Source: Escherichia coli (GTDB lineage Bacteria > Pseudomonadota > Gammaproteobacteria > Enterobacterales > Enterobacteriaceae). From it: DNA of 64,000 bases. The stretch lies in the NCBI RefSeq assembly GCF_017348835.2, contig NZ_CP072315.1; one strand, given 5' to 3'. Position numbers and translations under genes: made by a program. The notes beneath the pieces are model-generated. The model did not search any database and was not told the origin of the DNA. It saw only the letters and a list, made by a program, of their open reading frames with translations. This document shows positions 1,445 to 22,892 of this stretch, in pieces; positions within the stretch are counted from its first letter, which is position 1; each line of letters begins with the position of its first letter.

Positions 1445-1789
1445 GACATCTGTCGGGTGGAGATTAAATACTCAGAAGCGGCATTAAAGAAATAAGTTAA
1501 CCACCATTGAATTACCGACATGTGAATGGCCTCTTATCAGAGAAAAAAATTCAGACCGTACTGGAATATAAATTTCTGAAAAAAACTCCGGCAAAAATAA
1601 ACTTTCTTATGTATGAAAATCATCATACATCACAGATCTGCATGAATGGAGTGTAAATCGCCCAAAGATTGATGTGTAGCACAAGAGGATGTCAAGACAC
1701 CAGGTTTTGTAGGCAGAAAGGCGCTGCTGACATTGCGGGAGGAGAATAGATCAAAACTCCGTCACGCAGATACAGAGGTGAAATATGAC

Positions 1790-1814
1790 AAAACCGGGGT
1801 TTTCACCCCGGTCT
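1790..1814 (-). terminator. Putative intrinsic terminator downstream of terW
   Basis: Hairpin ACCGGGG/CCCCGGT followed by a short T-tract on the minus strand, immediately 3' of the terW stop. Confidence 0.4.
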
Positions 1815-1825
1815 GAGATTTAGCG

Positions 1826-2293
1826 TCAGGACTTTTTAGCGCTGTATTCTTTTATCAGTTCATCAACGGAGTGCAGAGCCAGCTTCTCTACCGCTTCACT
1901 TCGGGTCGAGCCACTCAGCGCAGCCAGACGGTCAATTTTTCTTAAAATCCGCATGCGTAGCGATAATGACACGGCTGTTTTTTTATCCTTATCGAGTACG
2001 ACCTTCCCTGTGGACTCACCGGTTTTCAGTTCAGCATTCTGTGCGAGCGCTTCATTCATCCGGCGAAGGGTCTTTTTATCCAGCTGGCCCGGATTAACGA
2101 GATGGTAGGAATGACCTGCCTTGCTGTATTTGATCTCCGCAGAATATGACTCGCGTAGCTCTTTGAGTGCCCGGGTTAATGTCGGCTCTGAGCATTCCAG
2201 ACTGGTTATAATGTCGGCAGCGGAAACGGGCTTGCCGGTGCCCAGTAAGTTGGCAAGCTTAAAAATCCGGGCCTGTCTGGTATTTAATTGCAT
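1826..2293 (-). CDS. terW: TerW-like regulatory protein
   Basis: 155-aa ORF; size and position between terY and the Ter-linked module match terW of ter islands. Confidence 0.65.
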   Translation of the reverse strand: MQLNTRQARIFKLANLLGTGKPVSAADIITSLECSEPTLTRALKELRESYSAEIKYSKAGHSYHLVNPGQLDKKTLRRMNEALAQNAELKTGESTGKVVLDKDKKTAVSLSLRMRILRKIDRLAALSGSTRSEAVEKLALHSVDELIKEYSAKKS

Positions 2294-2310
2294 CGTAAGA
2301 TTTAGCCTGC

Positions 2311-3519
2311 TTAAAGGGTTAGTGGTTCAATAGGCTGAAAAATGAAGGTACTGCTCATCTTTCGAATAACCGGGTGATCGCCTAACGCTTCAACCGGATC
2401 AATGTGTTCTAAGCCTGCAAAATTTACTGACGACATCTGGCTGCGACTGCATTTGCAGGACAGGATATACTCATCCTCCAGATAGCCGGTCCGCTTACTG
2501 ACCCGTTGCGTAAAGCCTGACACAATCACGTTGTCGAACGGTAGCGTATGTAAAACGATACCGACCAGGCGGAACAAGCAGCCATGGACGTGGCGGGCAT
2601 AGTTTTCGCGTACGGCTTTTTGCGTCATGGCTTTTTCCGTCAGCTCCGTGCCCCGGGCATTAACGCCGTAAATCTTATCAGGGAAATCTTCAATCTCAGC
2701 TAAATCAACATCCAGCAGGACTGCTGATAGCTCCGGCTTTACTTCAAATGCAACAAGCGTTTCACGCGGCCATTCAGTTTCTGCCAGCACACCCGCCAGG
2801 TATGATTCGAAAAACGCGGCGTCTGTCCGGAACTGCTGCCGGGCATCTGCCTGAGCCGTGGCGAGCCGTTTTTCATGTTCTTCAGCCTCAAACTTCCAGT
2901 TTGCATACTGTTCGGCCCAGGCCGTCCGTTGTTGCTGGTACCGGTGCTGTCGAAGGGTATTCTCACGCTCCACATCAATCAGCTCCTGCTGCCACCGGCG
3001 AAGATTTTCGGCGTGGCGCTCAGCTTTAGCTGATTCCGATTCAAACCATTTACCCAGAAAACTAATGCCTTCGCTCTCGGCAGGCTTTTCCGGCAATGCA
3101 AGATAGTCTGGCTTTTCTGGACGCACCGGTGCCGGAACCTGAAAAGGCGACGTTCTGTTATGCAGGTATACTGCTTCCAGCTCTGCCCAGCTGATGCCTG
3201 TTTTAGGATCCGGCGTCAGCTCGTGAATATTACGGATTGCGGTCACCGCTGACATGAGATCAGCGGCTTCCTCCTCAAGCGCCTGTCTGAGCCCCGGGTC
3301 GGTAGCCGTCCGGTTCCCACCTCCGGAACGCGCGGCCCGATCAAGCCGGGTACGGTAACTCAGCCCGGTACCGGGCAAGCCCAGATTGGCATAGGTCCCC
3401 CGGCTTCCAAAAGAAACGGAAGCACCTCTCGGCCCGACACTCAGGCTCGGTGCACCGTTACTCAGGTTGAGGCGAACACCAGGAATAATGTTGATCGACT
3501 TTCTGAATCTGAACCCCAT
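2311..3519 (-). CDS. Ter-associated protein with DUF4236-like N-terminus, function unknown
   Basis: 402-aa ORF co-directional and tightly packed with the module; glycine-rich N-terminal segment (GPRGASVSFGSRGTYANLGLPGTGLSYR). Confidence 0.55.
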   Translation of the reverse strand: MGFRFRKSINIIPGVRLNLSNGAPSLSVGPRGASVSFGSRGTYANLGLPGTGLSYRTRLDRAARSGGGNRTATDPGLRQALEEEAADLMSAVTAIRNIHELTPDPKTGISWAELEAVYLHNRTSPFQVPAPVRPEKPDYLALPEKPAESEGISFLGKWFESESAKAERHAENLRRWQQELIDVERENTLRQHRYQQQRTAWAEQYANWKFEAEEHEKRLATAQADARQQFRTDAAFFESYLAGVLAETEWPRETLVAFEVKPELSAVLLDVDLAEIEDFPDKIYGVNARGTELTEKAMTQKAVRENYARHVHGCLFRLVGIVLHTLPFDNVIVSGFTQRVSKRTGYLEDEYILSCKCSRSQMSSVNFAGLEHIDPVEALGDHPVIRKMSSTFIFQPIEPLTL

Positions 3520-3529
3520 TATGATTTCC

Positions 3530-4489
3530 TTAATGATGCTGGGTCACGGTAAGTAATCTGATTCCATCAGCGCTTTGCTCGTTCTGTAACCCATAAAAAC
3601 GAGCTCTGTCCAGAATGCCAGCCGCCCAGCGGCGATGTGTGGCGGGTTCACACATTGCTCCCTGCGACTTAAACACGGCCTGGGTAGAGTTCAGGATCCG
3701 CAGAGCGTCAGAATGCTCACCCTGAGTGACCATCAGCGCGTTTTGAATGACCTCTATCTGACCCGGGTGAATGGCCGTTTTCCCAACAAGCCCATGTGCC
3801 ATATCAAGAGCCAGCTCTCTGGCCATTACGGCATGATCGTCAATATGCTCACATACGGGCGCGGTCAGGGCAAAATCACGCGGGCCGAAGACCGAAACGA
3901 GCATTTTGATGACGTAGCCCATCGGGCTGTCATACAGCGTCAGGTCCCGGGGACGGCGAAGCGACACAACGTTCATAAGATCGTTGCCGCCGATTCGAAG
4001 CGCAATAATGCGGTCGTGGCAGGGATGTTCCACCAGACGGGTGGCCAGCTCCCGCATCTGAACCACGTCAAAGACGTCTTCTGTTTCCAGCGTTGGCATC
4101 ATGCACAGGTGAGTCCCGCCCATGATATCCCACCATTCAGCTAACGAACTGAGGGTAAATTTCGGCAACACAAACCCGTCGACAGCGGAAAGATCATAAT
4201 GCGCTTTTAACCATCTGCCCATTTCGGCATGCCGGGGGCGAATGAACACCAGAGGCCAGTCATTTTTACCCAGGCTATGCATGCTGTTACTGAGCTCGTG
4301 CAGCAGGTGCTCCAGATTTTTGAGGGCGACGGGGATGTCTGCTTCACTGACAGCATCCTCCAGGCAAATCACCAGAGAGCGCAAACCCGGGATTTTCCCG
4401 TGCAGGACGGCATCAGCAATATCTTCCCGTGTTGCAGGCATGTATAGCGTGGCTCCCAGATTCCAGGGAGAAAGACGATTTTTCATCAA
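3530..4489 (-). CDS. HpcH/HpaI aldolase / citrate-lyase beta-like (TIM-barrel) enzyme
   Basis: 319-aa ORF; start overlaps the upstream gene's stop (ATGA at 4486-4489), indicating translational coupling; fold assignment is from sequence similarity by eye. Confidence 0.6.
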   Translation of the reverse strand: MMKNRLSPWNLGATLYMPATREDIADAVLHGKIPGLRSLVICLEDAVSEADIPVALKNLEHLLHELSNSMHSLGKNDWPLVFIRPRHAEMGRWLKAHYDLSAVDGFVLPKFTLSSLAEWWDIMGGTHLCMMPTLETEDVFDVVQMRELATRLVEHPCHDRIIALRIGGNDLMNVVSLRRPRDLTLYDSPMGYVIKMLVSVFGPRDFALTAPVCEHIDDHAVMARELALDMAHGLVGKTAIHPGQIEVIQNALMVTQGEHSDALRILNSTQAVFKSQGAMCEPATHRRWAAGILDRARFYGLQNEQSADGIRLLTVTQHH

Positions 4490-5565
4490 AGTACCTTCTT
4501 GATAATGGTTACAGCCCGATACTGGCCGAGGGTTCCCCCCATTTCTGTAACAACTATTCCCTTTTCACGAGCAAGCCCTACAAGCAAGGCAACGTCCGAG
4601 TCGTCAATAGAACGCACAAATACATGGTCCGGTACCCGACGTAATACAGCCCGGGTTGCTTCAGCAATACCGGGTTTTATACGATTGACGCTGTCCACTT
4701 TAAATTCATCGGCCAGGAACGCGATAACGTCGCGACTTGTCTGCCATAAGACCCGGGCTGACTCCGTATTCCAGCTCAGGGGAGCGAGGGATGACGGGGT
4801 TAACTTCTTACGGAAATGAGCGACGGTATCGACAAGCATCCGGCTGCATTCGAATTCACTGAGATGCTCGCAAACCATGCACCCGTGTAATCCTTCAGAG
4901 GACCACACTGACCGGGAGATCAGGCCTGACACCGGCGCACCCATGATGCCAAAAGGAATGAGCCAGTCATCATCACTGGCTGCAAGCCAGGAGCAGCCAC
5001 AGGGATCGGCCAGGACAACCAGTCGCGGCTGCTCAGGATAGCCCGGGCGATCTTTCAGTGCGCGTACAAGCTCTCCGGTAATTGCGCCTTTACCTGTCCA
5101 TCCGTCAACAAAGACAATACCGCTGGTACCATGCCGCTCTTCAATGACGTCGAGGGCTGCACCGTCAATTCCACGATCCCGGATAATGCTGATACCGTAA
5201 TGCCATGAGGTTTTCCCCATGTCACGCAGGGCCTGGTGCAGCATAACGCCGAGCGGCACGCCAGCCCTGACAAGACTGGCCAGTACAATGGGCTCATCAC
5301 CAAAGCGTTTGGCCAGAGCAATAGCGAGCTGTGTGACTTCTTTTGCAAGTCTCTCTGCGCCCCGATCCAGCGCCCGGTGAAACAAATCAAGATGCCATTG
5401 TGTTGGCGCTGGCTCCTGACTGAGCATGTCCGAATAATGTTTCTTCCCTGACTGAATCAGCTCTTCTTTTTGCTCAACCGGCGTCATCTCAATGACAACC
5501 GGCTTTAGCAGAAATTCCACGTCACCGGGCTGGTATGAGCCGGTAAATGTGTCATGTGGCTGCAT
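4486..5565 (-). CDS. Phosphoribosyltransferase-like protein (divergent)
   Basis: ATG at 5565 preceded by a GGAGAA ribosome-binding site and placed 1 nt after the HAD stop; degenerate PRTase-like motif IVFVDGWTGKGAITG. Confidence 0.55.
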   Translation of the reverse strand: MQPHDTFTGSYQPGDVEFLLKPVVIEMTPVEQKEELIQSGKKHYSDMLSQEPAPTQWHLDLFHRALDRGAERLAKEVTQLAIALAKRFGDEPIVLASLVRAGVPLGVMLHQALRDMGKTSWHYGISIIRDRGIDGAALDVIEERHGTSGIVFVDGWTGKGAITGELVRALKDRPGYPEQPRLVVLADPCGCSWLAASDDDWLIPFGIMGAPVSGLISRSVWSSEGLHGCMVCEHLSEFECSRMLVDTVAHFRKKLTPSSLAPLSWNTESARVLWQTSRDVIAFLADEFKVDSVNRIKPGIAEATRAVLRRVPDHVFVRSIDDSDVALLVGLAREKGIVVTEMGGTLGQYRAVTIIKKVL

Positions 5566-5566
5566 T

Positions 5567-6340
5567 TTAATTTTCTCCAAAAATTCGCTGTGAAATGGCA
5601 TCTGCAAACTGACTCTGACGCGGGATGCCAAACCAGCTGCACAGTTTCATAAAACGATGATCGCTCAGGCTGTCGCCCAGGCCAATTACGGGGAAGACTC
5701 CGCGTTCAGCCCGAAGTTTTTCAAGCAGCCATCTGACTGCCAGCCCTTTCTCAACCGGGGTGGGAAGCCAGGCCACGTTATTACTGTTGCGGTGGATGTA
5801 GAAGCCCTCGGTCGGAAACACCGTTTCTATCTCATCTGCAATGGCATTAAGCTCGTCAAGGCGGGTGCTGTCGCGGTGCTTCATCACCATATAAACCGCC
5901 GTTTCACCGTATTCGAAGTTCAGCCTTGCCCAGGCATTGATCCCTTTTGCGTCCATCATTTCAGTGATCAGACGCTGCATCGATGTCAGCTTTTCCTGGT
6001 AGGGAGCCAGCTGGCCAAGCATATGGGCCTTCCACTCCTCGTCGGGTTTGCCTTCAGGCGTGAGAATGACGGCCCCGTGCGTGGTGATTGCCCAGGAGTG
6101 GAAAGGGATCCGGACGCGGCTGATTTCTTCAGTTCCCCGGGCGGTAACAGGTATGAGTTCAGCCTGCTCCAGGAGCCAGTCCACCAACATGGACTGTTCT
6201 TCCGTCATAAAGCTTCGTGGATTCAGGGTGCGATCAACGGCACCGGTACGGAATGGCTCCAGGGCCAGCTCGTCCACCATTTTACGACGGGTCTGAAAGA
6301 GCGTGTCGTCAAGGTCGCTCAGAACAACGGGTTTATTCAT
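5567..6340 (-). CDS. HAD-superfamily hydrolase
   Basis: Starts MNKPVVLSDLDDTLF (HAD motif I DxDxT); ATG at 6340 overlaps the PRTase gene's stop by 8 nt; the longer track ORF 5567..6676 is an upstream extension. Confidence 0.7.
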   Translation of the reverse strand: MNKPVVLSDLDDTLFQTRRKMVDELALEPFRTGAVDRTLNPRSFMTEEQSMLVDWLLEQAELIPVTARGTEEISRVRIPFHSWAITTHGAVILTPEGKPDEEWKAHMLGQLAPYQEKLTSMQRLITEMMDAKGINAWARLNFEYGETAVYMVMKHRDSTRLDELNAIADEIETVFPTEGFYIHRNSNNVAWLPTPVEKGLAVRWLLEKLRAERGVFPVIGLGDSLSDHRFMKLCSWFGIPRQSQFADAISQRIFGEN

Positions 6341-7481
6341 AGGTAACAATCTCCACGACGGGCGCAACCTCAGCCAGGGCTTTAAGAAGCTGCGTGTCAA
6401 TACTTTCTGCGGGTGTCTCAGTACACACAAGAATACGGTCAAACTGCTGGTGGGCGACGTTATAGACAAAATTGGGGATGCCCAGCCCGTAGTTATCCGT
6501 AAAGGAAATGGCGGACTCAATGGCATAACCAACGGCGATAGGGGAGCGGGTGGTCGAACCATAAAGTGCCTGTGCTCCGGCAGCTTCGAGCCGTTCAGCA
6601 AGCAGGAACGGCTCCCAGACGAATTCCCCGGTCCCGAGAACCAGAATACGTTCCCCCTTGCGGACGGAGACCTCATGGCCGAGATCGGCCGCAGGTGCGA
6701 GCATCCCCAGTCGACCCCAGGACTGTTTTCCCAGGATGTCCCATTCTCCGCGTGAAGTTACGTTGACTTTCGGCATGTCCGGGACAGGTGCATCAGGTAA
6801 TGGGGTCCATCCCCACTGACCGCTTACAAGCGAAACCGAAGTGACGGGCAAGGATGTGCGCTCCGACAGGGCGTTGCTACTCCAGTCGGTAAGCGTAACG
6901 GCGATAACCTGTTCAATATGTTGAAGCTTGCCGGTATTACGCAGGGCAGAAAGCAGGTTAATAAAGGTATTACCGGTGGTTGCCTCGTCATCAATCAAAA
7001 CCAGCGTTCGTGCGTTGGTAACACGACGTCTTTTCTCTTCATCATCTGGCAGATAGATCAGATGATCGGTGGCGTGGCTGTGTTCTTCCTTGAACTCGCA
7101 AAGTAACGTGCCATCAACCGGGTGACGGGTAGAGGTCAGATAGACAGATTCACGATGCTGGTGGCGCACTTCATCAAACACACCGGCCCCTAGCCCAACG
7201 GCGGTTTCAGCCATACCGATAAAAAGTACGGGCCCTGTCAGCGTTGCGGGGAACTGGCTGGCAAGCTGTCTGTAGGCCTGCCGCATGACTGAGGGTGGCA
7301 CGGGAATGTGCCTGCCGAGTACTTTGCTGACAAACAGAAAGGCGCGTTTCGGGTTACGTCTTTCAGCGATATCAAACAGGTCATCGAGCGAAACATCACC
7401 CTGGTCGCGGGTTACCTGTATCGTACCGCATGAGAGGGTACGGCGATAAATCATATCTTCGAGGGTATCAGACATAAACAC
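6333..7481 (-). CDS. Phosphoribosyltransferase-domain protein
   Basis: 382-aa ORF with PRTase signature VLIDDEATTGNT; GTG start at 7481 or ATG at 7475. Confidence 0.7.
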   Translation of the reverse strand: MFMSDTLEDMIYRRTLSCGTIQVTRDQGDVSLDDLFDIAERRNPKRAFLFVSKVLGRHIPVPPSVMRQAYRQLASQFPATLTGPVLFIGMAETAVGLGAGVFDEVRHQHRESVYLTSTRHPVDGTLLCEFKEEHSHATDHLIYLPDDEEKRRRVTNARTLVLIDDEATTGNTFINLLSALRNTGKLQHIEQVIAVTLTDWSSNALSERTSLPVTSVSLVSGQWGWTPLPDAPVPDMPKVNVTSRGEWDILGKQSWGRLGMLAPAADLGHEVSVRKGERILVLGTGEFVWEPFLLAERLEAAGAQALYGSTTRSPIAVGYAIESAISFTDNYGLGIPNFVYNVAHQQFDRILVCTETPAESIDTQLLKALAEVAPVVEIVTYE

Positions 7482-7484
7482 GCC

Positions 7485-8543
7485 TTAATTCAGATGGTTA
7501 GAGAGTGATTCCGGGTAAACGATGACATCTGTGATGGATCTCACTGCAACCGGAGAAAAGGTATTTCTGGCGCTCTGGATCACCGCATCTTCAGACATCA
7601 GACCGAGCTTAAAGGCAGCAAACAACCCGGGAAGGTTCACCCCGCTGTGAAGGGTATAACCCACCCCGCCTGACGGACGCATGTTGGTTTCAAGCAGCAC
7701 CGGGTTGCCATTCACATCGTTTCGCGTCTGAACATTCACCAGCCCGTCGGCCTTCATAACCCGGGCGCAGTCACAAGCCAGTTCCCAGGCGCTTCCTTCG
7801 TTTACCAGATACTGGATAGCCCCTTCCTTACGGCGTCCCACGGCTGCGAGTATTTCGCCCTTATCCGCGAGGATATCGACGGAAAATTCCGGGCCTGGCA
7901 GGTACGGCATCAAAACAAGGGGTTTAAACGACTCAGAAGCCGATGCTGCTGCAATATACTGTTGCGGACTGACCAGACGATGTTCGGGATGATTAAAGAC
8001 GGCCATGGGCGAAGCACTGTCATCAAAGCGCCAGAATCCCATGCCATAGATACCCGTCACCGGCTTCACGCATACCGGGCTGTCCGAGAACGGCGGGGCC
8101 GCGAGGTGCGTCTTTAATTCTGCCAGCGTATTCACCCGCCAGGACGGTACGACCGGGAGCCCGTTTTGCTCCATAAACTGAGCAAAAGTAACTTTTTCGT
8201 CAGCCAGAGTTAACCAGTCGACGCCTGTTGCACCGGTAGTAAGGGTGGCTCCGGTCGATTCAATGGCTGAACGGTGTTCTTCAAACCACTGGCTGTTACG
8301 GCCAGTATGAATATGGTGGATGCCGTAGGTCTGAATGGTTTCCTGAATAAACTGAAGACGTTTTTGAGGATCTTCAGGTTCAGTCAAAGAATAATCGGCA
8401 ACGGAAAGAATTTCATGTCTTTCGTTACGGTGGGAGGCAAATACGGTAATAGCAAAATTATTTTTTTGTGCAAATGATTTTACCCCCTGAATAATATCTC
8501 GCTGGGAGGACAAACCTTCCATAAACCAAATTTTCTTGTTCAT
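7485..8543 (-). CDS. ATP-grasp family enzyme
   Basis: 352-aa ORF, first gene of the minus-strand module; ATP-grasp-like fold judged from sequence. Confidence 0.65.
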   Translation of the reverse strand: MNKKIWFMEGLSSQRDIIQGVKSFAQKNNFAITVFASHRNERHEILSVADYSLTEPEDPQKRLQFIQETIQTYGIHHIHTGRNSQWFEEHRSAIESTGATLTTGATGVDWLTLADEKVTFAQFMEQNGLPVVPSWRVNTLAELKTHLAAPPFSDSPVCVKPVTGIYGMGFWRFDDSASPMAVFNHPEHRLVSPQQYIAAASASESFKPLVLMPYLPGPEFSVDILADKGEILAAVGRRKEGAIQYLVNEGSAWELACDCARVMKADGLVNVQTRNDVNGNPVLLETNMRPSGGVGYTLHSGVNLPGLFAAFKLGLMSEDAVIQSARNTFSPVAVRSITDVIVYPESLSNHLN

Positions 8544-8865
8544 TTTTTTTAATTATCCGGAACGCCATGCAAATTTATGATTGAGAAGTGAGTCTATGAG
8601 TGTCTACGCTACATGTCAATCATAATATGATTAATAACTTCAGTGGTTATGGAGTGCGTCAGTGTTTTTTTAGTGCCTTATAACGTATTGATATTTAAAT
8701 TAAAAATAGAAAAATGAACACCATGAAAAGGATTTATTTTTGTGTTTTTGAAGAAAACTACCAAAATTTCCCTTGTCAGAGAACTTCATCATGATATGAT
8801 TTTCTTCGTCAGTTACTAAATATACCTTTGATTGTCTCGGTCATTACCATTTTAAGGAATAAAAC
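8544..8865. promoter_or_regulatory. AT-rich divergent intergenic region between the Ter-linked module and terZ
   Basis: 322-bp AT-rich non-coding stretch separating divergently oriented operons; GGAA ribosome-binding site upstream of terZ. Confidence 0.5.
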
Positions 8866-9447
8866 ATGGTTTCATTAAGTAAGAACCAGACGGTATCACT
8901 CAGCAAAGAATCTTCAGCATTAAGCCAGCTTCAATTCGGTCTCGGTTGGGATCCGGTTAAGAAAAAAGGTCTTCTTGGAGGATTGTTTGGAGGCAACGAC
9001 TCAATCGATCTCGATGCTGGCTGCGTATTAATGGACAGCACCGGTAAAACAATTGACACCATCTGGTTCCGCAAACTGGAATCCACCTGCGGCGCTGTTG
9101 TGCACAGTGGCGATAACCTGACCGGTGAGGGTGACGGTGACGATGAGGTGATTAAGGTCAACCTCTCCCGACTGCCTGCAAACGTTGAATACCTGGCGTT
9201 TACGGTAAACAGCTTCCGTGGTCAGTCGTTCAATGACGTCGAAAACGCGTTCTGCCGCGTTGTCGATCAAACCGGCAAAGAGCTGGCTCGCTACAAGCTG
9301 ACTGAGCAGGGCTCACATACCGGGATCGTTATTTCTTCGCTGCGCCGTAATAACGGCAACTGGGACTTTACCGCCCTTGGCCATGCCTGTCGCGGCCGCA
9401 CAATTGACGATATGCACTCCGATATCGTTTCAGCGGTTATTCGCTAA
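8866..9447 (+). CDS. terZ: Tellurium resistance protein TerZ (TerD family)
   Basis: 193-aa ORF with TerD domain; first gene of a terZABCDE-order cluster. Confidence 0.85.
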   Translation: MVSLSKNQTVSLSKESSALSQLQFGLGWDPVKKKGLLGGLFGGNDSIDLDAGCVLMDSTGKTIDTIWFRKLESTCGAVVHSGDNLTGEGDGDDEVIKVNLSRLPANVEYLAFTVNSFRGQSFNDVENAFCRVVDQTGKELARYKLTEQGSHTGIVISSLRRNNGNWDFTALGHACRGRTIDDMHSDIVSAVIR

Positions 9448-10604
9448 TGAACCTGACGCCGGGGGGCAATGCCCCCGTTCCAGCCCAGGAGTTGCGGGTC
9501 CGGATCACCTCGGGCGGCCAGGTGGATGCTTCGGCGTTTCGCCTGTATGCCGACGGGAAGGTGCAGGGTGATGCGGACATGGTGTTTTATGGTCAGCCAC
9601 GTAACGATGATGGTACCGTCAGCCTGGTCAGTGAAGGCCAGTACTCAACCTTTACTGTCGCGCTCAACCGGCTGAAACCTGATGTCCAGAAAATTGCGTT
9701 CACCGTGACCTGTGACGGTGGGCAGACGGTGTCCGGTCTTCGTAATCTTTCCATCGACGTGGAGCAAGGGGCTACCGGCCTGGTTAGCGGCAGTGTCGAA
9801 CTGAGCGGCCGTCAGGAAGCAGCCTTAATTCTGGGTGAATTTTACCGTCGTAATAATGACTGGAAATTCCGCTTCGTTGCGCAGGGGTTCAACGGTGGAC
9901 TTAAACCGCTGGCAGAGCATTTCGGCGTAAATATTGCCGACGAACCGGCTCCCGCAGCCCCGACTCCTCCGGTTGTAACCCCTCCGCCAGTTGAGACAAA
10001 AATCAGCCTGAGCAAGGTATCGCTGACAAAAGAGAAGCCTGCAATCAGCCTGACCAAACGGGATAACTTCGGTGAAATCCGGATCAACCTGAACTGGCAC
10101 CGGGGCAGCGGCAAATCAGGCTTTGCAGGCATGTTCGGCTCCAAAGGAATCGACCTGGATCTGGGGGCCTTTGTTGAGCTTCAGGACGGGTATAAATCGG
10201 TCATTCAGGCGCTCGGTAATGCATTCGGTAATTATCGCGATGAACCGTATGTTCAGCTCAAGGGCGATGACCGGACGGGTGATGTATCAGACGGCGAGTG
10301 GCTGCATATCAATGGACGTGAATGGAAGCATATCCGCGAAGTGCTGATTTACGCCTTTATTTATGAAGGTGTTCCCAGCTGGGACAAGACTGATGGTGTG
10401 GTCACCATTCATGTGCCGGATCAACCGCCCATTGAGACCCGCCTGACCGAAGGTGAAAACCGTCGCACATTGTGCGCCATTGCCAGACTCGTAAACGAAA
10501 ACGGCGCAATTAAAGTCGAGCGAATTAACCAGTACTTCAAAGGCCAGGACGAAATGGACCGGGCATTTGGCTGGGGATTTCGCTGGAGCGCCGGTTCTAA
10601 ATAA
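9447..10604 (+). CDS. terA: Tellurium resistance protein TerA
   Basis: 385-aa ORF; TAATG stop/start overlap with terZ. Confidence 0.85.
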   Translation: MNLTPGGNAPVPAQELRVRITSGGQVDASAFRLYADGKVQGDADMVFYGQPRNDDGTVSLVSEGQYSTFTVALNRLKPDVQKIAFTVTCDGGQTVSGLRNLSIDVEQGATGLVSGSVELSGRQEAALILGEFYRRNNDWKFRFVAQGFNGGLKPLAEHFGVNIADEPAPAAPTPPVVTPPPVETKISLSKVSLTKEKPAISLTKRDNFGEIRINLNWHRGSGKSGFAGMFGSKGIDLDLGAFVELQDGYKSVIQALGNAFGNYRDEPYVQLKGDDRTGDVSDGEWLHINGREWKHIREVLIYAFIYEGVPSWDKTDGVVTIHVPDQPPIETRLTEGENRRTLCAIARLVNENGAIKVERINQYFKGQDEMDRAFGWGFRWSAGSK

Positions 10605-10626
10605 CACAGCAACAAAGGAAACAGGT

Positions 10627-11082
10627 ATGAGCTTTTTCGACAAGGTAAAAGGTGCCATTAACTCTGGCCGGGACGAACTGACCCGCCAGGTTGGTCGTTT
10701 CAAAAACAAAAAATTTATGCACGGCACCGTTGCTGTATGTGCCCGTATTGCCGTATCGAGTGACGGCGTGAGTTCGGAAGAAAAGCAGAAAATGATGGGC
10801 TTTCTTCGCTCTTCAGAAGAGCTGAAGGTCTTCGATACCAATGAGGTGATCGAGTTCTTCAATAAACTGGTTTCAAGCTTCGATTTCGATGTTGAAATCG
10901 GCAAGGGCGAAACCATGAAATACATCCTGGCGCTGAAAGATCAGCCTGAGGCCGCTCAGCTGGCCTTACGTGTTGGTATTGCCGTTGCGAAAAGTGACGG
11001 TAACTTCGATCAGGACGAGAAACTGGCCTCCCGCGAGATCGCTATCGCGTTGGGCTTCGACCCGGCTGAATTTGGCCTCTGA
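10627..11082 (+). CDS. terB: Tellurium resistance protein TerB
   Basis: ATG at 10627 with AAGGAAACAGG ribosome-binding site gives 151 aa (MSFFDKVKG...); the track ORF from 10567 is an upstream extension. Confidence 0.85.
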   Translation: MSFFDKVKGAINSGRDELTRQVGRFKNKKFMHGTVAVCARIAVSSDGVSSEEKQKMMGFLRSSEELKVFDTNEVIEFFNKLVSSFDFDVEIGKGETMKYILALKDQPEAAQLALRVGIAVAKSDGNFDQDEKLASREIAIALGFDPAEFGL

Positions 11083-11104
11083 TCCACATCCCTAAGGGTA
11101 AAAT

Positions 11105-12145
11105 ATGGTTTCCACACACATCGGCTTCCCGACTGAAACGGTCATTGTTTTCATTGCGCTTTCAGTCGGTGCCATCTTTATTGACCTGTTTATGCACCGT
11201 GATGACAAGCCCATTTCCCTGAAGAGTGCGGCGCTCTGGTCCGTATTCTGGGTTGTGGTTGCGATGGCATTTGCCGGTTTCCTCTACATCCACCACGGTG
11301 CTGAGGTTGCCAGCCTGTTTGTAACGGGTTATGCGCTGGAGAAAGTGCTGTCGGTCGACAACCTGTTTGTCATGATGGCCATCTTCTCCTGGTTCGCCGT
11401 TCCTGATCGTTACCGCCACCGTGTTCTCTACTGGGGGATCATTGGTGCCATCGTCTTCAGGGGCATCTTTGTCGCCATCGGTACGAGCCTGCTGAGTCTG
11501 GGGCCGTATGTTGAAGTTGTCTTCGCTATCATCGTCGCCTGGACGGCGGTCATGATGCTTAAAAGCGGTGATGACGATGATGAAATTGAGGATTATTCCC
11601 AGCATCTGGCTTACCGCATGGTTAAACGCTTCTTCCCTATCTGGCCGAAGCTCAGAGGTCATGCTTTCCTGCTTAACCAGAAGGAAGTGGATGCCGAACT
11701 GGCGAAACCAGAAAACAGCGATGTCACCATTGGCCGTGGTAAAAAGGCGGCGCTGTATGCGACCCCTCTGTTCCTGTGTGTGGCCGTGGTTGAACTCTCG
11801 GATGTTATGTTTGCGTTTGACTCGGTACCGGCAATCATTGCCGTCAGTCGTGAACCGCTTATCGTCTATAGTGCCATGATGTTTGCTATCCTGGGCCTGC
11901 GTACTCTGTACTTTGTCCTTGAAGCACTGAAACAGTACCTGGTTCATCTGGAGAAGGCCGTTATCGTGCTGCTGTTCTTCATCGCGGCAAAACTGGGCCT
12001 GAATGCGACCGATCACATTTGGCATCATGGTTACAGCATCGCGGCGACAACCAGCCTGTATGTTGTACTGGGTGTTTTGGCGCTGGGCATTCTCGCAAGC
12101 GTCATATTCCCGGGCAAACCTGAATCTGAGGAAAAGGGGAGCTGA
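11105..12145 (+). CDS. terC: Integral membrane protein TerC
   Basis: 346-aa ORF with multiple hydrophobic helices. Confidence 0.85.
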   Translation: MVSTHIGFPTETVIVFIALSVGAIFIDLFMHRDDKPISLKSAALWSVFWVVVAMAFAGFLYIHHGAEVASLFVTGYALEKVLSVDNLFVMMAIFSWFAVPDRYRHRVLYWGIIGAIVFRGIFVAIGTSLLSLGPYVEVVFAIIVAWTAVMMLKSGDDDDEIEDYSQHLAYRMVKRFFPIWPKLRGHAFLLNQKEVDAELAKPENSDVTIGRGKKAALYATPLFLCVAVVELSDVMFAFDSVPAIIAVSREPLIVYSAMMFAILGLRTLYFVLEALKQYLVHLEKAVIVLLFFIAAKLGLNATDHIWHHGYSIAATTSLYVVLGVLALGILASVIFPGKPESEEKGS

Positions 12146-12193
12146 TCCCCTGAAGTGTTAACCTGAACAATTACTAATCGAAGAGGTTATTTT

Positions 12194-12772
12194 ATGAGTG
12201 TTTCTCTTTCCAAAGGCGGGAACGTCTCCCTGAGTAAAGCAGCTCCGTCAATGAAAAACGTCCTGGTGGGCCTTGGCTGGGATGCGCGTTCAACAGACGG
12301 TCAGGACTTTGACCTGGATGCTTCAGCATTCCTGCTGGCCGCAAATGGCAAAGTGCGCGGCGATTCAGATTTCATCTTCTATAACAACCTGACGTCATCT
12401 GACGGTTCCGTAACCCATACCGGTGATAACCGTACCGGTGAAGGTGATGGTGATGATGAATCGCTGAAAATTAAACTGGACGCCGTCCCGTCTGATGTTG
12501 ACAAGATCATCTTCGTTGTCACTATCCATGATGCTCAGGCTCGTCGCCAGAGCTTTGGTCAGGTATCCGGTGCGTTTATTCGCCTGGTCAATGACGATAA
12601 CCAGACTGAAGTCGCTCGCTACGATCTGACCGAAGATGCGTCCACTGAGACTGCCATGCTGTTCGGCGAGCTGTATCGCCACAATGGTGAGTGGAAATTC
12701 CGCGCAGTGGGCCAGGGTTATGCTGGTGGTCTGGCATCTGTATGTGCTCAGTACGGCATTAACGCGTCCTGA
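12194..12772 (+). CDS. terD: Tellurium resistance protein TerD
   Basis: 192-aa [16 protein letters not shown] motif. Confidence 0.9.
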
Positions 12773-12839
12773 TCGAAAAGTAACTTTTCACCCGGGGCTG
12801 TTAATGCAGCCCTCATTCAACTGTTTGCAGGAGCTAAAA

Positions 12840-13415
12840 ATGGCAGTTTCTCTCGTAAAAGGCGGCAACGTATCTCTGACCAAAGAAGCACCAACCATGA
12901 ATATCGCTATGGTTGGCCTCGGCTGGGATGCCCGTGTAACTGACGGTCAGGCTTTTGACCTGGACGCTTCCGTGTTCGCAGTAGGCGAAGACGGTAAAGT
13001 GCTGTCAGATGCGCATTTCATTTTCTTCAATAACAAAACCAGCCCTGATGGCGCGGTAGAGCACCAGGGCGACAACCGTACCGGTGAAGGCGACGGTGAC
13101 GATGAGCAGGTCAAAATCGATCTGACCAAAGTCTCAGCAGATATCAAAAAACTGGTGTTTGCCGTTACCATCTATGATGCAGAAGCGCGTAAACAAAACT
13201 TCGGCATGGTGAGCAACAGCTTCATGCGCGTTTACAACAACGACAACGGCACGGAAATTGCCCGTTTCGATCTGTCTGAAGATGCCTCAACCGAAACCGC
13301 TATGGTCTTCGGTGAACTGTATCGTCATGGCGCTGAGTGGAAGTTTAAAGCTGTCGGTCAGGGCTTTGCCGGTGGCCTGGCGGCTCTTGCCTCCCAGCAC
13401 GGCGTTAACATCTAA
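12840..13415 (+). CDS. terE: Tellurium resistance protein TerE
   Basis: ATG at 12840 after a GGAG ribosome-binding site gives 191 aa (MAVSLVKGG...), a close paralog of TerD. Confidence 0.85.
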
Positions 13416-13432
13416 AACAACGCTGAATCATA

Positions 13433-13457
13433 CCCCGGCAATGCCGGGGTTTTTTTT
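13433..13457 (+). terminator. Rho-independent terminator after terE
   Basis: Hairpin CCCCGGC-AAT-GCCGGGG followed by eight T residues. Confidence 0.75.
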
Positions 13458-13843
13458 GGTTGCGATCCGCTTTCAGGAGGGAGTAGTAGAAAGGGGACTG
13501 GAAATTTCAGAAAGCAGGTCATGTTAATTCAGACCTGAGCCTTTTAAAGGCAGGAAACGGATTTATCTCTGGTTGCTGGTTAAAGCCGGTATTCCGTGCC
13601 TTTTATCAACAGAATGCCCCTCTGATATATGTTACTTTTGCGGTTTATGAAGGAACGGGATCTGGAACATAAGATACCCGGTCAATCAAAATTCCAGTTC
13701 AACAGGTATAGAAACTTCAGCGTGATGAAATATGGTGTCACACCATATATACGCCTCACCAGAAATCCAGCGTCCTGAACTAAGCCTGGGGAACATATAT
13801 AAGCGCTGCGCTTTAAAAATAATCAAAAATCAGGAGAGTTAAT

Positions 13844-15085
13844 GTGAATCTACAATCCGGACAAAACATACCGCTTCAGCAATCTGCGATCAGGCTGAAT
13901 CTTCAGTACCCTGCCAAATCCGGCTTTAAAGGCGAACCCGATACCTGCCTCTTCCTGCTTAATGCTCAGGGAAAGGTAACCGGCGATTCTGACTTTATCT
14001 TTTATAATAATCTGTCTTCTCCTGAAGGGGCAGTAAAGCTCGTTACCGGTTCTCAGCAGTCCAGCATTGAGATAGCACTGGATCGTGTTCCGGCGAACGT
14101 CAGTAAGATTGCGATCACCGTTGTCATTGATGGTGAAGATACTATCAGTGGGCTCAGTTTATTGAGCATTCAGGCTCCTGGTATCGCTGATTTTCAGGCT
14201 GAGACTCAGGGCCGCAGTGAGAAAGCAATCATCCTGGGTGAAGTATATCGGCACAATGGCGCCTGGAAGCTTCGTGCGCTCGGGCAGGGTTTCAACGGTG
14301 GTCTTGAGCCTCTGGCCATTAGCTTTGGCGTTGATGTCGCACAGCCAGCTCCGCAGCCAGCAAAGCCTGCTCGTATCAGTCTGGAAAAGAAACTTGAAAC
14401 CAGATCTCCGCGCCTCGTAAGCCTCGCTAAAAAAGCCTCGGTCAGTCTCACTAAAAATAAACTGGACACCCTTGAGGCAGCGGTTGCATTTGTACTTGAC
14501 GCATCCGGCTCAATGAGTGGCCAGTTCAGTAAGGGCAACGTTCAGTCTGTGCTGGACCGCATCGCCGTTCTTGCCGCCCAGTTCGACGACGACGGTGAAA
14601 TGGATGTCTGGGGATTTGGAGAGAAGCACAAGAAGTATCCAAACGTCACACTGGACAACCTGGACACATATATTCAGTCCATTCGCGGGTCTGGAAAGCG
14701 TTCAGCCTGGGAGAACCTGCCGGGACTTGGTGGGACAAACAATGAGCCCCCTGTGATGGAAGAAATTGTCGACTACTTTAAGGACTCGAAAATCCCGGTA
14801 TATGTTGTATTTATTACCGATGGCGGGATCAGCAAGACCCGGGCGATTAAAGATGCAATCCGGCGTTCTGCCAACTACCCCATCTTCTGGAAGTTTGTCG
14901 GCCTGGGTGGTTCAAGCTACGGTATCCTCAAAAATCTGGATGACTTTACTGACCGCCGGGTTGATAACACCCACTTCTTTGCCATGGATGATTTCGGTTC
15001 GATCAGCGATGAAAAGTTATATGATAATTTACTGGAAGAATTCAGACCGTGGATCGATGAAACAAAAAGGTTAGGCATCCTGTAA
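13844..15085 (+). CDS. terF: TerF-like protein (TerD domain fused to vWA domain)
   Basis: 413-aa ORF with GTG start after a CAGGAGAG ribosome-binding site; TerD-like N-half and vWA-like C-half (VLDASGSM). Confidence 0.75.
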
Positions 15086-15978: not shown

Positions 15979-16170
15979 TCATCGAGGCGCATAACCTTCT
16001 TCCCTTAACGCCTGTTGTAATTTATCAACTGCGCTTTTCATTACCCAGGCTTCTTCGTCACTCACAGCACAACCACGTAGATCGCTCCAGCTCAGACGTT
16101 TAACAAATTGAGCAAGGGCCATAGTTTCGTTCTCATCAAGCCGCAAACTCAGTGTCTCAATACCTTCCAC
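15979..16170 (-). CDS. Hypothetical small protein
   Basis: 63-aa ORF. Confidence 0.35.
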   Translation of the reverse strand: MEGIETLSLRLDENETMALAQFVKRLSWSDLRGCAVSDEEAWVMKSAVDKLQQALREEGYAPR

Positions 16171-17685: not shown

Positions 17686-17840
17686 GCAAGTAAGCTAACT
17701 ATCTGAAATGACGAAGGTTCATTTGGTGAATGTCGCTTCATATTAATGTTGTGTCACTTATGATCGTATGTAGCTGGTTGCAAAGAGGAGCGATGAGACA
17801 ATAAAGTTGTATCGCTAACAAGATTTATGCTGCCACATAG

Positions 17841-17940
17841 TAACAGCCTAAAAGTTGTACGCCCTATTTAACAGCTTTTAGGCTGTTAATTTGATATTAC
17901 AGCTTTTAGGGTGTATGTTTAGGAAACAGCCTGCAAGGTG
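17841..17940 (+). promoter_or_regulatory. Four iterated operator-like motifs upstream of hipB
   Basis: ACAGC(C/T)TNNAAG-like motif at about 17842, 17871, 17899 and 17926, partly palindromic. Confidence 0.45.
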
Positions 17941-17968
17941 TATCAGAGGAAACTACTGAGGCCAGCTT

Positions 17969-18265
17969 ATGATCAATAATGATTACCCGTTAAACACGCT
18001 CAACCAGCTGCGTCCCTTGCTCATTGGTTTTCGCAAGGCGAATGGCCTGACGCAAAAAGACCTGTCCGAAAGGTTAGGCGTCACTCAACAGACATACTCA
18101 CGTCTGGAAGCCAACCCTGCCAGTGCGAGCATTGAACGGCTATTCAAGGTGTTTTCCATCCTGGGCGTAAAAATCAGCTTCTCCTCGGCAACCACCTCTT
18201 CAGAGAGGAAGCAGACGGAAGAAATGCTTAAATCAAACTCACCTGCACGACAGGAGGATTGGTAA
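17969..18265 (+). CDS. hipB: HipB-like HTH (XRE-family) antitoxin
   Basis: 98-aa ORF with HTH segment (LTQKDLSERLGVTQQTYSRLE) directly upstream of the hipA-like gene. Confidence 0.75.
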   Translation: MINNDYPLNTLNQLRPLLIGFRKANGLTQKDLSERLGVTQQTYSRLEANPASASIERLFKVFSILGVKISFSSATTSSERKQTEEMLKSNSPARQEDW

Positions 18266-18269
18266 CGAT

Positions 18270-19595
18270 ATGAGCCGGAAACAGCAACGTCTGGTAATTT
18301 GGATGAACGGCATCAAAGTCGGGTACTGGGAAAAAAGCAAAGGGGTAGACAGCTTAGAATACCTTCCTGAATGGGTTGCTGACGAACAGGGAAGGCCGCT
18401 GTCATTGTCCCTTCCTTTTACTCCCGGGAACCAGGTCTGGCGTGGAAATGTGGTACGTGACTATTTTGATAATTTACTGCCGGACAGCGAAGGCATACGC
18501 AGACGTCTGGCAATGCGTTACAAGGCCGATAGCCTGGAGCCTTTTGATCTGCTGACGGAGCTGGGAAAAGACTGCGTGGGCGCGATACAGCTGCTTCATG
18601 ACGGAGATGAACCCACTGATTTATATTCCGTGAAGTATCACCCGCTTACTGAATCAGAAATTGCGGCAACTTTGCGTAATACCACGGAGACATTGCTACC
18701 GGGCAGGCCAGAAGATAACGACGACTTACGTTTATCTATTGCCGGTGCTCAGGAGAAAACAGCCCTACTGTGGCATGAAGATCGGTGGTGTATGCCGGAG
18801 GGTAATACACCAACGACGCATATATTCAAGCTACCGCTCGGACTTGTGGGGAACATGAAAGCCGACATGAGCTCGTCGGTTGAAAATGAATGGCTCTGCT
18901 CGGTACTTCTCGGCCAGTACGGGCTCCCCGTGGCAAGAACGCAGATTGCTCACTTTGAAGATCAGAAAGCGCTGGTGGTAGAACGTTTTGACCGAAAATG
19001 GTCAGGAGACGGACAATGGATCATTCGTTTACCCCAGGAGGATATGTGTCAGGCCCTGGGCGTTTCGCCATTACGAAAATATCAGGCGGACGGCGGGCCA
19101 GGTATATCGGAAATTATGGAGGTTCTGAGTAATTCAGACCGTGCTGAGCGTGACAAAGCGCAGTTTTTTATGACGCAGATAATTTTCTGGATGATGGCCG
19201 CAACAGATGGCCACGCTAAAAATTTCAGTATTTCTATTGGGCCACAGGGACGTTATCACCTTACACCAAACTATGATGTGTTGTCGGCATGGCCGGTGAT
19301 CGGTCATGGGAACAATCAGATATCCTGGCAGAAGTGCAAACTGGCGATGGCCGTACGTGGCAGTAGCAACTATTACCAGATATATCGAATACAACGACGC
19401 CACTGGATCAGGCATGGTGAGATAACCGGCCTGAGTAAACAGCAGACAGAGGCGATGATAGAGGAAATCATCGCCAGAACCCCGGGTGTCATTGAACGTG
19501 TTAGCGGGCTTCTTCCGGACCAGTTCCCCCAGCAGCTTGCGGAAAGTATTTTTGATGGAATGAGGCAGCAATGCAGGCGCCTGGCTGAGAAATGA
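18270..19595 (+). CDS. hipA: HipA-like Ser/Thr kinase toxin
   Basis: 441-aa ORF, 4 nt after the hipB stop; N-terminal HipA-like coupling region and kinase-like core. Confidence 0.75.
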   Translation: MSRKQQRLVIWMNGIKVGYWEKSKGVDSLEYLPEWVADEQGRPLSLSLPFTPGNQVWRGNVVRDYFDNLLPDSEGIRRRLAMRYKADSLEPFDLLTELGKDCVGAIQLLHDGDEPTDLYSVKYHPLTESEIAATLRNTTETLLPGRPEDNDDLRLSIAGAQEKTALLWHEDRWCMPEGNTPTTHIFKLPLGLVGNMKADMSSSVENEWLCSVLLGQYGLPVARTQIAHFEDQKALVVERFDRKWSGDGQWIIRLPQEDMCQALGVSPLRKYQADGGPGISEIMEVLSNSDRAERDKAQFFMTQIIFWMMAATDGHAKNFSISIGPQGRYHLTPNYDVLSAWPVIGHGNNQISWQKCKLAMAVRGSSNYYQIYRIQRRHWIRHGEITGLSKQQTEAMIEEIIARTPGVIERVSGLLPDQFPQQLAESIFDGMRQQCRRLAEK

Positions 19596-20386: not shown

Positions 20387-21202
20387 ATGAGAGAGCCAAG
20401 ACCACGCCATACCTTGCAGGTCATTCGTGTACCTTCTCTGGAGGTTCAGGACCTGGGGCTGACCAGCTTTGATAGCTGGCTTGACGAGCACGGGTATGAC
20501 AAAACGAATGCCAGAAATAACCGTACCATCTGGGCGAGAGAAGGCGGATGGCATCTGAAACGTTGCAGAAATCTTGAAACTGGCACGGACGATTTCTGGT
20601 TTATCGCTTTCGATGGTAAAGGCGGGAAGATTTACCCGCTGAAAACCCAAAGAGACTACCGGGCTGCATATCGTAAGCTGGAAGCAGAAGGTTATGCGCC
20701 TGCGGTCATCGAGCAAATGACCACAGGCGCAGCATATAACCTGGCCTATCCACGTTCCATCCTAAAACAAGCTGAGACGGCCACCAGCGAGCCAATTCGG
20801 AAACCTGACGTAGATATCCAGGGTGAGCACTGCGAGCGCGTAGTGACGCAACGTAGTGGCGTGGCACAGGGTAAATTCAAAGCTCTGCTCATCGAGAATT
20901 TCGCAGGCCGTTGTGCGGTAACCGGTTGGGTTAATGGAGGTGTCCTGGATGCGGCACACATTGAACATGGAACCCGGTACAATCCGTCTAATGGCATCCT
21001 GATGACTCCAACAATGCATGCGCTGTTTGATGCCGATCTTATGGGCATAGATCCGGCCACCCTGACCGTTCATTTTAAGCCAGGCATTGAGGTGGGCGAG
21101 CTGTTTGAAGGCCGTAAAATCACACCGCTGGTGTACGATCTGGACTTAGAGCGGCTGGCCGTACGCTGGGCAGAATACCAGGGCCTTGCTCAGGACCAAT
21201 GA
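20387..21202 (+). CDS. HNH-family endonuclease
   Basis: 271-aa ORF with HNH-like C-terminal motif (CAVTGW ... LDAAHI ... NGILMTPTMHALFD). Confidence 0.65.
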   Translation: MREPRPRHTLQVIRVPSLEVQDLGLTSFDSWLDEHGYDKTNARNNRTIWAREGGWHLKRCRNLETGTDDFWFIAFDGKGGKIYPLKTQRDYRAAYRKLEAEGYAPAVIEQMTTGAAYNLAYPRSILKQAETATSEPIRKPDVDIQGEHCERVVTQRSGVAQGKFKALLIENFAGRCAVTGWVNGGVLDAAHIEHGTRYNPSNGILMTPTMHALFDADLMGIDPATLTVHFKPGIEVGELFEGRKITPLVYDLDLERLAVRWAEYQGLAQDQ

Positions 21203-21485: not shown

Positions 21486-21761
21486 GTGGCTTCTGTTTCT
21501 ATCAGCTGTCCCTCCTGTTCAGCTACTGACGGGGTGGTGCGTAACGGCAAAAGCACCGCCGGACATCAGCGCTATCTCTGCTCTCACTGCCGTAAAACAT
21601 GGCAACTGCAGTTCACTTACACCGCTTCTCAACCCGGTACGCACCAGAAAATCATTGATATGGCCATGAATGGCGTTGGATGCCGGGCAACCGCCCGCAT
21701 TATGGGCGTTGGCCTCAACACGATTTTCCGCCATTTAAAAAACTCAGGCCGCAGTCGGTAA
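21486..21761 (+). CDS. insA: IS1 InsA
   Basis: 91-aa [40 protein letters not shown]... Confidence 0.9.
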
Positions 21762-22183
21762 CCTCGCGCATACAGCCGGGCAGTGACGTCATCGTCTGCG
21801 CGGAAATGGACGAACAGTGGGGATACGTCGGGGCTAAATCGCGCCAGCGCTGGCTGTTTTACGCGTATGACAGGCTCCGGAAGACGGTTGTTGCGCACGT
21901 ATTCGGTGAACGCACTATGGCGACGCTGGGGCGTCTTATGAGCCTGCTGTCACCCTTTGACGTGGTGATATGGATGACGGATGGCTGGCCGCTGTATGAA
22001 TCCCGCCTGAAGGGAAAGCTGCACGTAATCAGCAAGCGATATACGCAGCGAATTGAGCGGCATAACCTGAATCTGAGGCAGCACCTGGCACGGCTGGGAC
22101 GGAAGTCGCTGTCGTTCTCAAAATCGGTGGAGCTGCATGACAAAGTCATCGGGCATTATCTGAACATAAAACACTATCAATAA
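21680..22183 (+). CDS. insB: IS1 InsB (expressed as an InsAB' frameshift fusion)
   Basis: 167-aa ORF overlapping insA in the -1 frame. Confidence 0.85.
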
Positions 22184-22226: not shown

Positions 22227-22892
22227 CTAACGACTACCACTTTTAAGTATGTATTGAGCCAGTTTTATATTCAGGCACACCATATTGCACTCTAGCTCTT
22301 TCATCATTCTTGAAGAACTCTTAATTAAGTATTCTTCAAGTGGGCCAGCATATGCCCCTGATGTCACGATCGTTAGTTGCGTAAGAGGATGAGTCAAACT
22401 CTCAATGCCCTTCAGGATGTCATTCTGGACAGCAGCAATATAAACAGGCGAAGCCGCAATCAAATATTCATCATTCGGGCTGGACTGCATTAACTGGCTT
22501 ATAGTTGCGCAACGGTTATGCTTACCTAGTGATTTTGTGATGGCTTTCCACCAGAGATCATGCCTGAATGGTACTTGATGAAATGTCGCCTCGTAAGAGG
22601 GCACCCGATCTCGACTATTTAAAAACCCCATCCCGGCAGAGATTATCCACAACTCCAGATTTCTGGTTGAGTTTAAAATTTCCTTTGCCGTAGACCAGTG
22701 ATTACCTGAATACAAGGACAATGCCGGTACCGCCTGATTACTTCTGGCGTCGTCTACAATGTTACTCCAGGCATATGCTGCGTCGTCCGGGGTTTGTTTT
22801 GGATCTATGTCCAATGTCGGCCAGACGTGGCCCTGATGATTCTTGCCCTTTGTACAGGAAGTGATTAAGTGTACTGAGCGTTCAGAGAACAT
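22227..22892 (-). CDS. Hypothetical protein
   Basis: 221-aa ORF, second gene of a two-gene minus-strand unit. Confidence 0.45.
   Translation of the reverse strand: MFSERSVHLITSCTKGKNHQGHVWPTLDIDPKQTPDDAAYAWSNIVDDARSNQAVPALSLYSGNHWSTAKEILNSTRNLELWIISAGMGFLNSRDRVPSYEATFHQVPFRHDLWWKAITKSLGKHNRCATISQLMQSSPNDEYLIAASPVYIAAVQNDILKGIESLTHPLTQLTIVTSGAYAGPLEEYLIKSSSRMMKELECNMVCLNIKLAQYILKSGSR

Follow-up and report, generated by a model that had tools for sequence, protein, structure and literature searches.

The best-described relative of the gene pair that we analyze here is the chromosomal hipBA operon of Escherichia coli K-12 (b1507/b1508; PDB 2WIU, 3DNV, 3HZI, 4YG7). Its HipA consists of an N-terminal subdomain and a kinase core, and its HipB is a helix-turn-helix (HTH) protein. 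The C-terminal tail of K-12 HipB, which ends in a tryptophan, binds a pocket on HipA. The operon has four palindromic operators with half-sites of the form TATCC-N8-GGATA.

Among plasmid-borne hipBA modules, the one on pPSKoxy4_2 (Klebsiella michiganensis, IncA/C) is the sole case we found with experimental proof of toxicity, neutralization and stabilization. The HipA of this module shows strong toxicity, which the cognate HipB neutralizes (PMC11487325). The module cuts the loss of a test plasmid from ~1-10% to <0.0001% in K. oxytoca, with a weaker effect in E. coli, and in 2024 its authors described this as the first evidence for a role of plasmid HipBA in stability (PMC11487325).

More distant systems share parts of this design. 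HipBST (HipT/HipS) and HipH/YjjJ have the same HipA_C kinase core and the same motifs (PMC8262856). In HipAD (DS-6) a HipA-related kinase needs its catalytic residue to function (PMC13092281).

The pair studied here lies in a stretch of 64,000 nucleotides of E. coli contig NZ_CP072315.1, which we call the window. The original prediction described it as a 98-aa HTH reading frame followed, after a gap of 4 nt, by a 441-aa reading frame, and this layout is confirmed to the exact coordinate:

17969..18265, plus strand: hipB-like antitoxin/repressor gene, starting with ATG and encoding 98 aa with an Xre/Cro-type HTH (Pfam HTH_3) and the C-terminus ...PARQEDW

18270..19595, plus strand: hipA toxin gene, starting with ATG and encoding a 441-aa Ser/Thr kinase with an N-terminal subdomain and a kinase core (Pfam Couple_hipA, HipA_C)

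The two genes are co-oriented in the same order as in K-12, hipB then hipA. The intergenic gap (cgat) follows the TAA stop codon of hipB; in K-12, by contrast, the two frames share one base. The hipB ATG is preceded at a distance of 7 nt by a GAGG, and an AGGAGG within the 3' end of hipB lies 12 nt 5' of the hipA ATG. Both reading frames are genuine genes and not chance ORFs. The pair stands alone in the window: a tblastn search of all 64 kb found no second copy of hipB or hipA.

The 441-aa protein matches Pfam HipA_C with an E-value of 3.6e-51 (174 bits against a cut-off of 30.5 bits), Couple_hipA at residues 9-108 (3.7e-21, 75.9 bits), and NCBIfam TIGR03071 with 93.5 bits against a cut-off of 27.8 bits. 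In a PDB search, eight distinct E. coli HipA sequences align to residues 7-431 with E-values of about 1e-100. This full-length match to solved HipA structures settles the fold and family of the protein.

The original prediction named as its check an alignment of the catalytic and loop residues with those of E. coli HipA, and in this alignment every residue that we examined is conserved. K-12 residues S150, K157, K181, D309, H311, N314 and D332 correspond to S156, K163, K187, D313, H315, N318 and D336. The catalytic motif D-x-H-x-x-N is present as D313-G-H315-A-K-N318, and D336 is the Mg-binding aspartate. The Gly-rich loop, LS156IAGAQEK163T, has the same pattern as IS150VAGAQEK157T in K-12. 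It thus carries S156, the equivalent of the autophosphorylation serine, while K187, the counterpart of K181, provides the ATP-binding lysine. By sequence, the product of hipA is a full-length Ser/Thr kinase of the HipA family whose active site is intact, and it shares with K-12 HipA the two-part domain structure and the catalytic, Mg-binding, Gly-rich-loop and autophosphorylation residues.

Two related kinase types can be set aside. HipH/YjjJ does not fit, with 25.3 bits for NCBIfam NF007297 against a cut-off of 401 bits and an N-terminus that is a Couple_hipA domain and not an HTH. HipBST has a separate HipS, whereas here the antitoxin is a HipB, and N-terminal subdomain and kinase form one 441-aa protein. 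Because of this fusion the protein is a HipA and not a split HipT.

The 98-aa protein contains an HTH_3 domain (Pfam, E-value 4.5e-15), and among solved structures in the PDB it is most similar to HipB chains of E. coli (1.4e-6). However, its identity to K-12 HipB is just 24%, and it scores 41.5 bits with the model of the K-12 HipB equivalog (NCBIfam NF007271), below the cut-off of 79 bits. We therefore classify it by sequence as a divergent HipB homologue and not as the K-12 orthologue. The score below the cut-off also explains why RefSeq gives the protein only the generic name "helix-turn-helix transcriptional regulator", next to "type II toxin-antitoxin system HipA family toxin" for its neighbor.

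Like K-12 HipB, the protein ends in an acidic residue and a tryptophan, although its tail has 10 additional residues. When the protein is aligned with K-12 HipB and homologues (four to six family members), the terminal W98 does not vary, and a PARxExW tail is common to this HipB subfamily. The tail corresponds to the part of K-12 HipB that binds HipA.

Identity to the K-12 proteins is low for both partners. HipA is 41% identical to K-12 HipA in a global alignment (K-12 sequence from NC_000913.3). Together with the low identity of HipB, the different operator code, the longer HipB tail and the gap between the genes, this places the IncHI2 pair in a subfamily distinct from the K-12 pair.

The plasmid relatives differ as well. 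The pPSKoxy4_2 module likewise consists of hipB and hipA and is located on a large conjugative plasmid of enterobacteria, and its HipA is ~44% identical to K-12 HipA. It belongs, however, to a different HipA cluster, and its HipB shares 38.6% identity with K-12 HipB, well above the value for the IncHI2 protein. The Klebsiella plasmid HipAs that we found, which may include that of pPSKoxy4_2, are 44.6% identical to IncHI2 HipA. The closest diverged relative we found is the hipBA of Cronobacter IncFIB plasmids (e.g. pCsaCS09c), with 70% identity for HipA and 56% for HipB. It shares the PARxExW tail but sits on another plasmid family and has a HipB of 93 aa.

The region 5' of hipB contains a predicted promoter and four operator-like sites. 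We compared it with the corresponding region of pC45-VIM4, which represents a second IncHI2 lineage:

17820..17842, plus strand: left edge of the conserved module; homology with pC45-VIM4 starts at ~17820, and the sequence to the left of it is unrelated

17843..17858, no strand assigned: operator-like site 1 (ACAGCCTAAAAGTTGT), which fits ACAGC-N6-GNTGT; in pC45-VIM4 the half-sites are the same and a single spacer base is changed

17871..17886, no strand assigned: operator-like site 2 (ACAGCTTTTAGGCTGT), a perfect palindrome that fits the pattern on both strands and abuts the -35 element; identical in pC45-VIM4

17891..17919, plus strand: predicted sigma-70-like promoter, TTGATA-17 nt-TATGTT, from a consensus scan (9/12 positions)

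17899..17914, no strand assigned: operator-like site 3 (ACAGCTTTTAGGGTGT), within the promoter spacer, in the position relative to -35 and -10 that O2 has in K-12 hipBA

17926..17941, no strand assigned: operator-like site 4 (ACAGCCTGCAAGGTGT), 3' of the -10 element; in pC45-VIM4 the half-sites are kept and two spacer bases are changed

The sites start at 17843, 17871, 17899 and 17926, giving a spacing of 28/28/27 bp. The pattern ACAGC-N6-GNTGT has five matches in the 64-kb window against 0.48 expected, and all five fall inside the same 100 bp; they represent the four sites, one of them counted on both strands. The pattern scan finds the motif nowhere else in the window, hence no other target of a regulon is visible there. 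A terminator-like match at 17868-17889 turned out to be operator-like site 2 itself.

The four sites are maintained while the sequence around them changes. We compared the two IncHI2 lineages codon by codon for each gene and with a MAFFT alignment for the leader, which has a 1-nt indel. All eight half-sites are unchanged in the pC45-VIM4 leader, and the substitutions lie in the N6 spacers and between the sites. Upstream of the Cronobacter homologue there are again four sites of the same motif, 27-28 bp apart, with unrelated spacers and including an equivalent of operator-like site 2; the background for sites with at most one mismatch is 0.03 per 220 nt. Both the conserved half-sites in pC45-VIM4 and the recurrence of the motif in Cronobacter speak for genuine binding of a protein at these sites. 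We infer that the four palindromes over the promoter are putative HipB operators, at which HipB would bind and repress transcription.

K-12 hipBA also has four palindromic operators with a spacing of ~28 bp (28/39/28 in full), one of them inside the promoter spacer. The two operons thus share their architecture but not the half-site or the spacer length. HipB and its operators both differ strongly from their K-12 counterparts, and for this reason there is probably no cross-talk between the plasmid module and the hipBA on the chromosome of its host.

In contrast to the K-12 operon, the module is plasmid-borne. From position 1 to ~39,900 the window is identical to the Salmonella plasmid p2016062-242 (NZ_CP090540.1, IncHI2A). 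The pair has the tellurite-resistance (ter) cluster on its left, lies between ter and backbone genes, and is followed downstream by small hypothetical genes, an HNH endonuclease and an IS1. A scan for a terminator 3' of hipA found none.

The module is widespread on such plasmids. The 2-kb hipBA region occurs in 1,186 PLSDB plasmids, and those we inspected are typed as IncHI2A. Carriers come from six or more genera (Escherichia 387, Salmonella 350, Enterobacter 302, Klebsiella 75, and others), and 985 of the 1,186 plasmids are conjugative. At least 80% of the region is held by 1,153 PLSDB plasmids, the kind of backbone retention looked for in an addiction module. Among complete E. coli genomes, 285 of 5,426 contain the region, and 286 of its 290 places are on plasmids. 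These carriers bear out the plasmid location that had been proposed. Retention is not absolute, as HipBA is missing from one of seven IncHI2 plasmids in one study (PMC6657070). The module is therefore not indispensable.

Sequence change within the module points to constraint. The region of pC45-VIM4 is 97.9% identical. Between the two IncHI2 alleles hipA differs by 23 substitutions (dN/dS ~0.34) and hipB by 8 (dN/dS ~0.51), values that suggest purifying selection but rest on these small counts. The four amino-acid changes in HipB all fall in residues 74-97, outside the HTH, and the terminal tryptophan is retained. The hipA of pENT-8a4 has lost 11 bp and is out of frame beyond about codon 340, next to an intact hipB. 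Inactivation of the toxin gene only, as in pENT-8a4, is what a toxic hipA would be expected to produce. Another plasmid of our spread sample (H87) also combines a frameshifted hipA with an intact hipB.

Taken together, the module has each defining feature of a canonical HipBA with a long HipA that can be tested in the sequence, and the claim of a plasmid-borne, hipBA-type kinase toxin-antitoxin module has held in all of these tests. Our main reading is that the two genes form a type II toxin-antitoxin operon of the canonical hipBA kind, which is part of the IncHI2 plasmid backbone and serves mainly in plasmid maintenance. We give this reading a probability of roughly 0.75.

Following the K-12 paradigm, HipB dimers, alone or as HipA2B2, would occupy the four sites and repress their own operon, and HipB would keep HipA inactive. 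When HipB is degraded and not replenished, for example, after plasmid loss, free HipA would become active. It would then phosphorylate an aminoacyl-tRNA synthetase. The most likely target is GltX, an extrapolation from K-12 HipA at 41% identity; other HipA-family kinases target TrpS or LysS (PMC8262856). Uncharged tRNA would build up, induce the stringent response and stop growth. For a plasmid of ~200-300 kb the net effect would be the arrest or killing of plasmid-free segregants, and thus plasmid maintenance.

Of the functions put forward in the original prediction, post-segregational killing is the best supported and the most likely. The support comes from the analogy with the plasmid hipBA that was tested experimentally (PMC11487325). 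Papers on IncHI2 plasmids list hipA/hipB, by annotation or PCR, as a backbone "maintenance" or "post-segregational killing" module (PMC6617520, PMC4855149, PMC6306219, PMC6657070). In a transcriptome study, hipA/B of an IncHI2 plasmid were among the plasmid genes with differential expression (PMC13183382). Our literature search returned mentions at the level of annotation and found no experiment on the toxicity, the target or the stabilizing effect of IncHI2 hipBA.

Alternatively, the main selected role of the module could be antibiotic tolerance. In this case stochastic activation of HipA would produce persisters among carriers, to the advantage of the host and hence of the plasmid under drug exposure, in place of the killing of segregants. 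The hipA7 gain-of-function positions, G25 and D295, are wild type in IncHI2 HipA, and wild-type hipBA of K-12 yields little persistence. Nevertheless, chromosomal hipBA of K-12 is the classic persistence locus (PMC8262856), and the IncHI2 module is carried on multidrug-resistance plasmids of drug-exposed hosts. An IncHI2 plasmid has been reported to raise ciprofloxacin tolerance, but the effect was not ascribed to hipAB (PMC6617520). We found no experimental link between the module and tolerance in the literature, and both the backbone location and the experimental precedent favor maintenance. We hence consider tolerance unlikely as the main role. It is possible as a side effect of plasmid maintenance, a by-product that would enlarge the fraction of drug-tolerant persisters among carriers.

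A more ambitious reading goes beyond maintenance. It takes the IncHI2 proteins to be part of a HipB subfamily with a DNA code of its own (ACAGC-N6-GCTGT) that is insulated from chromosomal hipBA. Solo HipBs on other plasmids would neutralize IncHI2 HipA as anti-addiction genes, through which large resistance plasmids would compete with each other, or the module would double as an abortive infection system. We regard this reading as speculative and its chance of being correct as slim.

Abortive infection as the role of the module is improbable and, at present, unsupported. The shut-off of transcription by a phage would deplete HipB, and HipA would then halt translation before the phage cycle is completed. 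Many type II toxin-antitoxin systems act against phage, and the neighborhood has a flavor of defense, with the HNH endonuclease, a DpdC-like fragment and a cytosine methyltransferase. The phage-inhibition phenotype of IncHI2 plasmids, however, is ascribed to the ter cluster. The HipA-family kinase system HipAD is validated in defense (PMC13092281), but its partner (DUF3037/DUF1829) has no similarity to HipB, whereas the partner here is a HipB-type HTH protein. The literature that we retrieved contains no phage data for canonical HipBA.

Matches to PADLOC-DB v2 are weak. HipA matches the candidate model PDC-M03A over part of the kinase core (21.2 bits, E-value 4e-5), and HipB matches generic HTH models. 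We also scanned ten neighboring genes. Neither scan gave a convincing match for the pair, and on present evidence hipBA is unlikely to be a known defense system.

That the locus is a decaying or domesticated remnant, with a nontoxic HipA or with a HipB that chiefly regulates the transcription of other genes on the plasmid, is barely credible: the frameshifted hipA genes beside intact hipB and the solo hipB-like genes on other plasmids would fit such a remnant, but the catalytic residues are all intact, dN/dS is below 1, hipA is annotated in 32 of the 34 IncHI2-type rows of the spread sample (H54-H87), and the operator motif is confined to the hipBA leader within the window.

As a feature of the backbone, IncHI2 hipBA is already known and ordinary, since it is annotated in RefSeq and named hipAB in the IncHI2 literature. 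Two points are mildly new: the operator motif, which is unlike that of K-12, and the presence, on other large plasmids, of solo HipB homologues that have this motif and tail in common with the IncHI2 module. The conservation of the operators and the audit of the catalytic residues are further small additions.

The module matters because of the plasmids that carry it. In Salmonella, E. coli and Enterobacter, IncHI2 plasmids rank among the main vehicles of mcr-1/mcr-9, oqxAB, blaCTX-M and carbapenemase genes, and the persistence of these resistance genes is partly due to the stable inheritance of the plasmids. Only a few addiction-type modules are found on IncHI2 plasmids, and hipBA is one of them. 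Its practical value is that of a well-defined candidate target, for example, for plasmid-curing strategies.

The solo hipB-like genes noted above are located on IncHI1B plasmids, with the proteins WP_017384073.1 and WP_001097216.1, and on IncF plasmids; they keep the PARxExW tail and the same operator as IncHI2 hipBA.

Genes for HipB-like proteins also occur as solo genes on other large plasmids, of the IncHI1B, IncHI1B/IncFIB and IncF types:

L008 3001-3297, plasmid NZ_CP141538.1: solo hipB-like gene
L010 3004-3303, plasmid NZ_CP022495.1: solo hipB-like gene
L011 3004-3300, plasmid CP044386.1: solo hipB-like gene
L012 3004-3300, plasmid CP110572.1: solo hipB-like gene

Their products share 54-66% amino acid identity with the IncHI2 HipB and retain the PARxExW C-terminal tail. 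One or two copies of an ACAGC-N6-GCTGT site lie 60-95 bp upstream of the genes. A tblastn search of L008 found no hipA, and no hipA is among the annotated genes downstream of the solo gene in L010-L012. Such solo genes could be remnants or anti-addiction genes.

On pENT-8a4 (NZ_CP008899.1, locus L006) an 11-bp deletion at about 2968-2978 shifts the hipA frame after about codon 340, and hipB is intact. Another sampled IncHI2-type plasmid (H87, NZ_CP133352.1) is also without an annotated hipA.

RefSeq (WP_024136327.1) places the start of the IncHI2 hipB at 17972, an ATC codon. An in-frame ATG lies at 17969, with GAGG 7 nt upstream. Since HipB homologues begin with MNN, MNT or MDT, the IncHI2 gene appears to carry one additional codon after the ATG.

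The module is flanked by several small, conserved hypothetical genes and by the following features of the window:

1-15085: tellurite-resistance region, directly left of the hipBA neighbourhood
15979-16170 (-): DUF7706 protein, 63 aa, upstream of hipBA
20387-21202 (+): HNH_2 endonuclease-motif protein, 271 aa (Pfam, E 3e-7)
21486-22183: IS1, adjoining the next ORF
22227-22892 (-): DpdC-like ORF, 221 aa (PADLOC DpdC and Pfam DUF6884)

The tellurite-resistance region contains terW, terZABCDE-type TerD/TerB/TerC genes and VWA/TerF-like proteins, together with ATP-grasp, phosphoribosyltransferase and StiP protease genes. The HNH_2 gene, 0.8 kb downstream of hipA, also matches the PADLOC HNH profile (2.4e-8). 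The ORF beside IS1 matches PADLOC DpdC (PDLC02818; E 4e-59) over profile positions 3-233 of 319, as well as DUF6884. It looks like a truncated dpdC-like gene of a 7-deazaguanine DNA-modification system.

Further right, identity with the Salmonella plasmid NZ_CP090540.1 ends at about 39.9 kb, and the sequences diverge beyond. The divergence point (about 39100-39900 onward) is close to an IS26 annotated at about 39132-39836 in NZ_CP090540.1, which suggests that the source plasmid of the window carries a different IS26-bounded resistance region.
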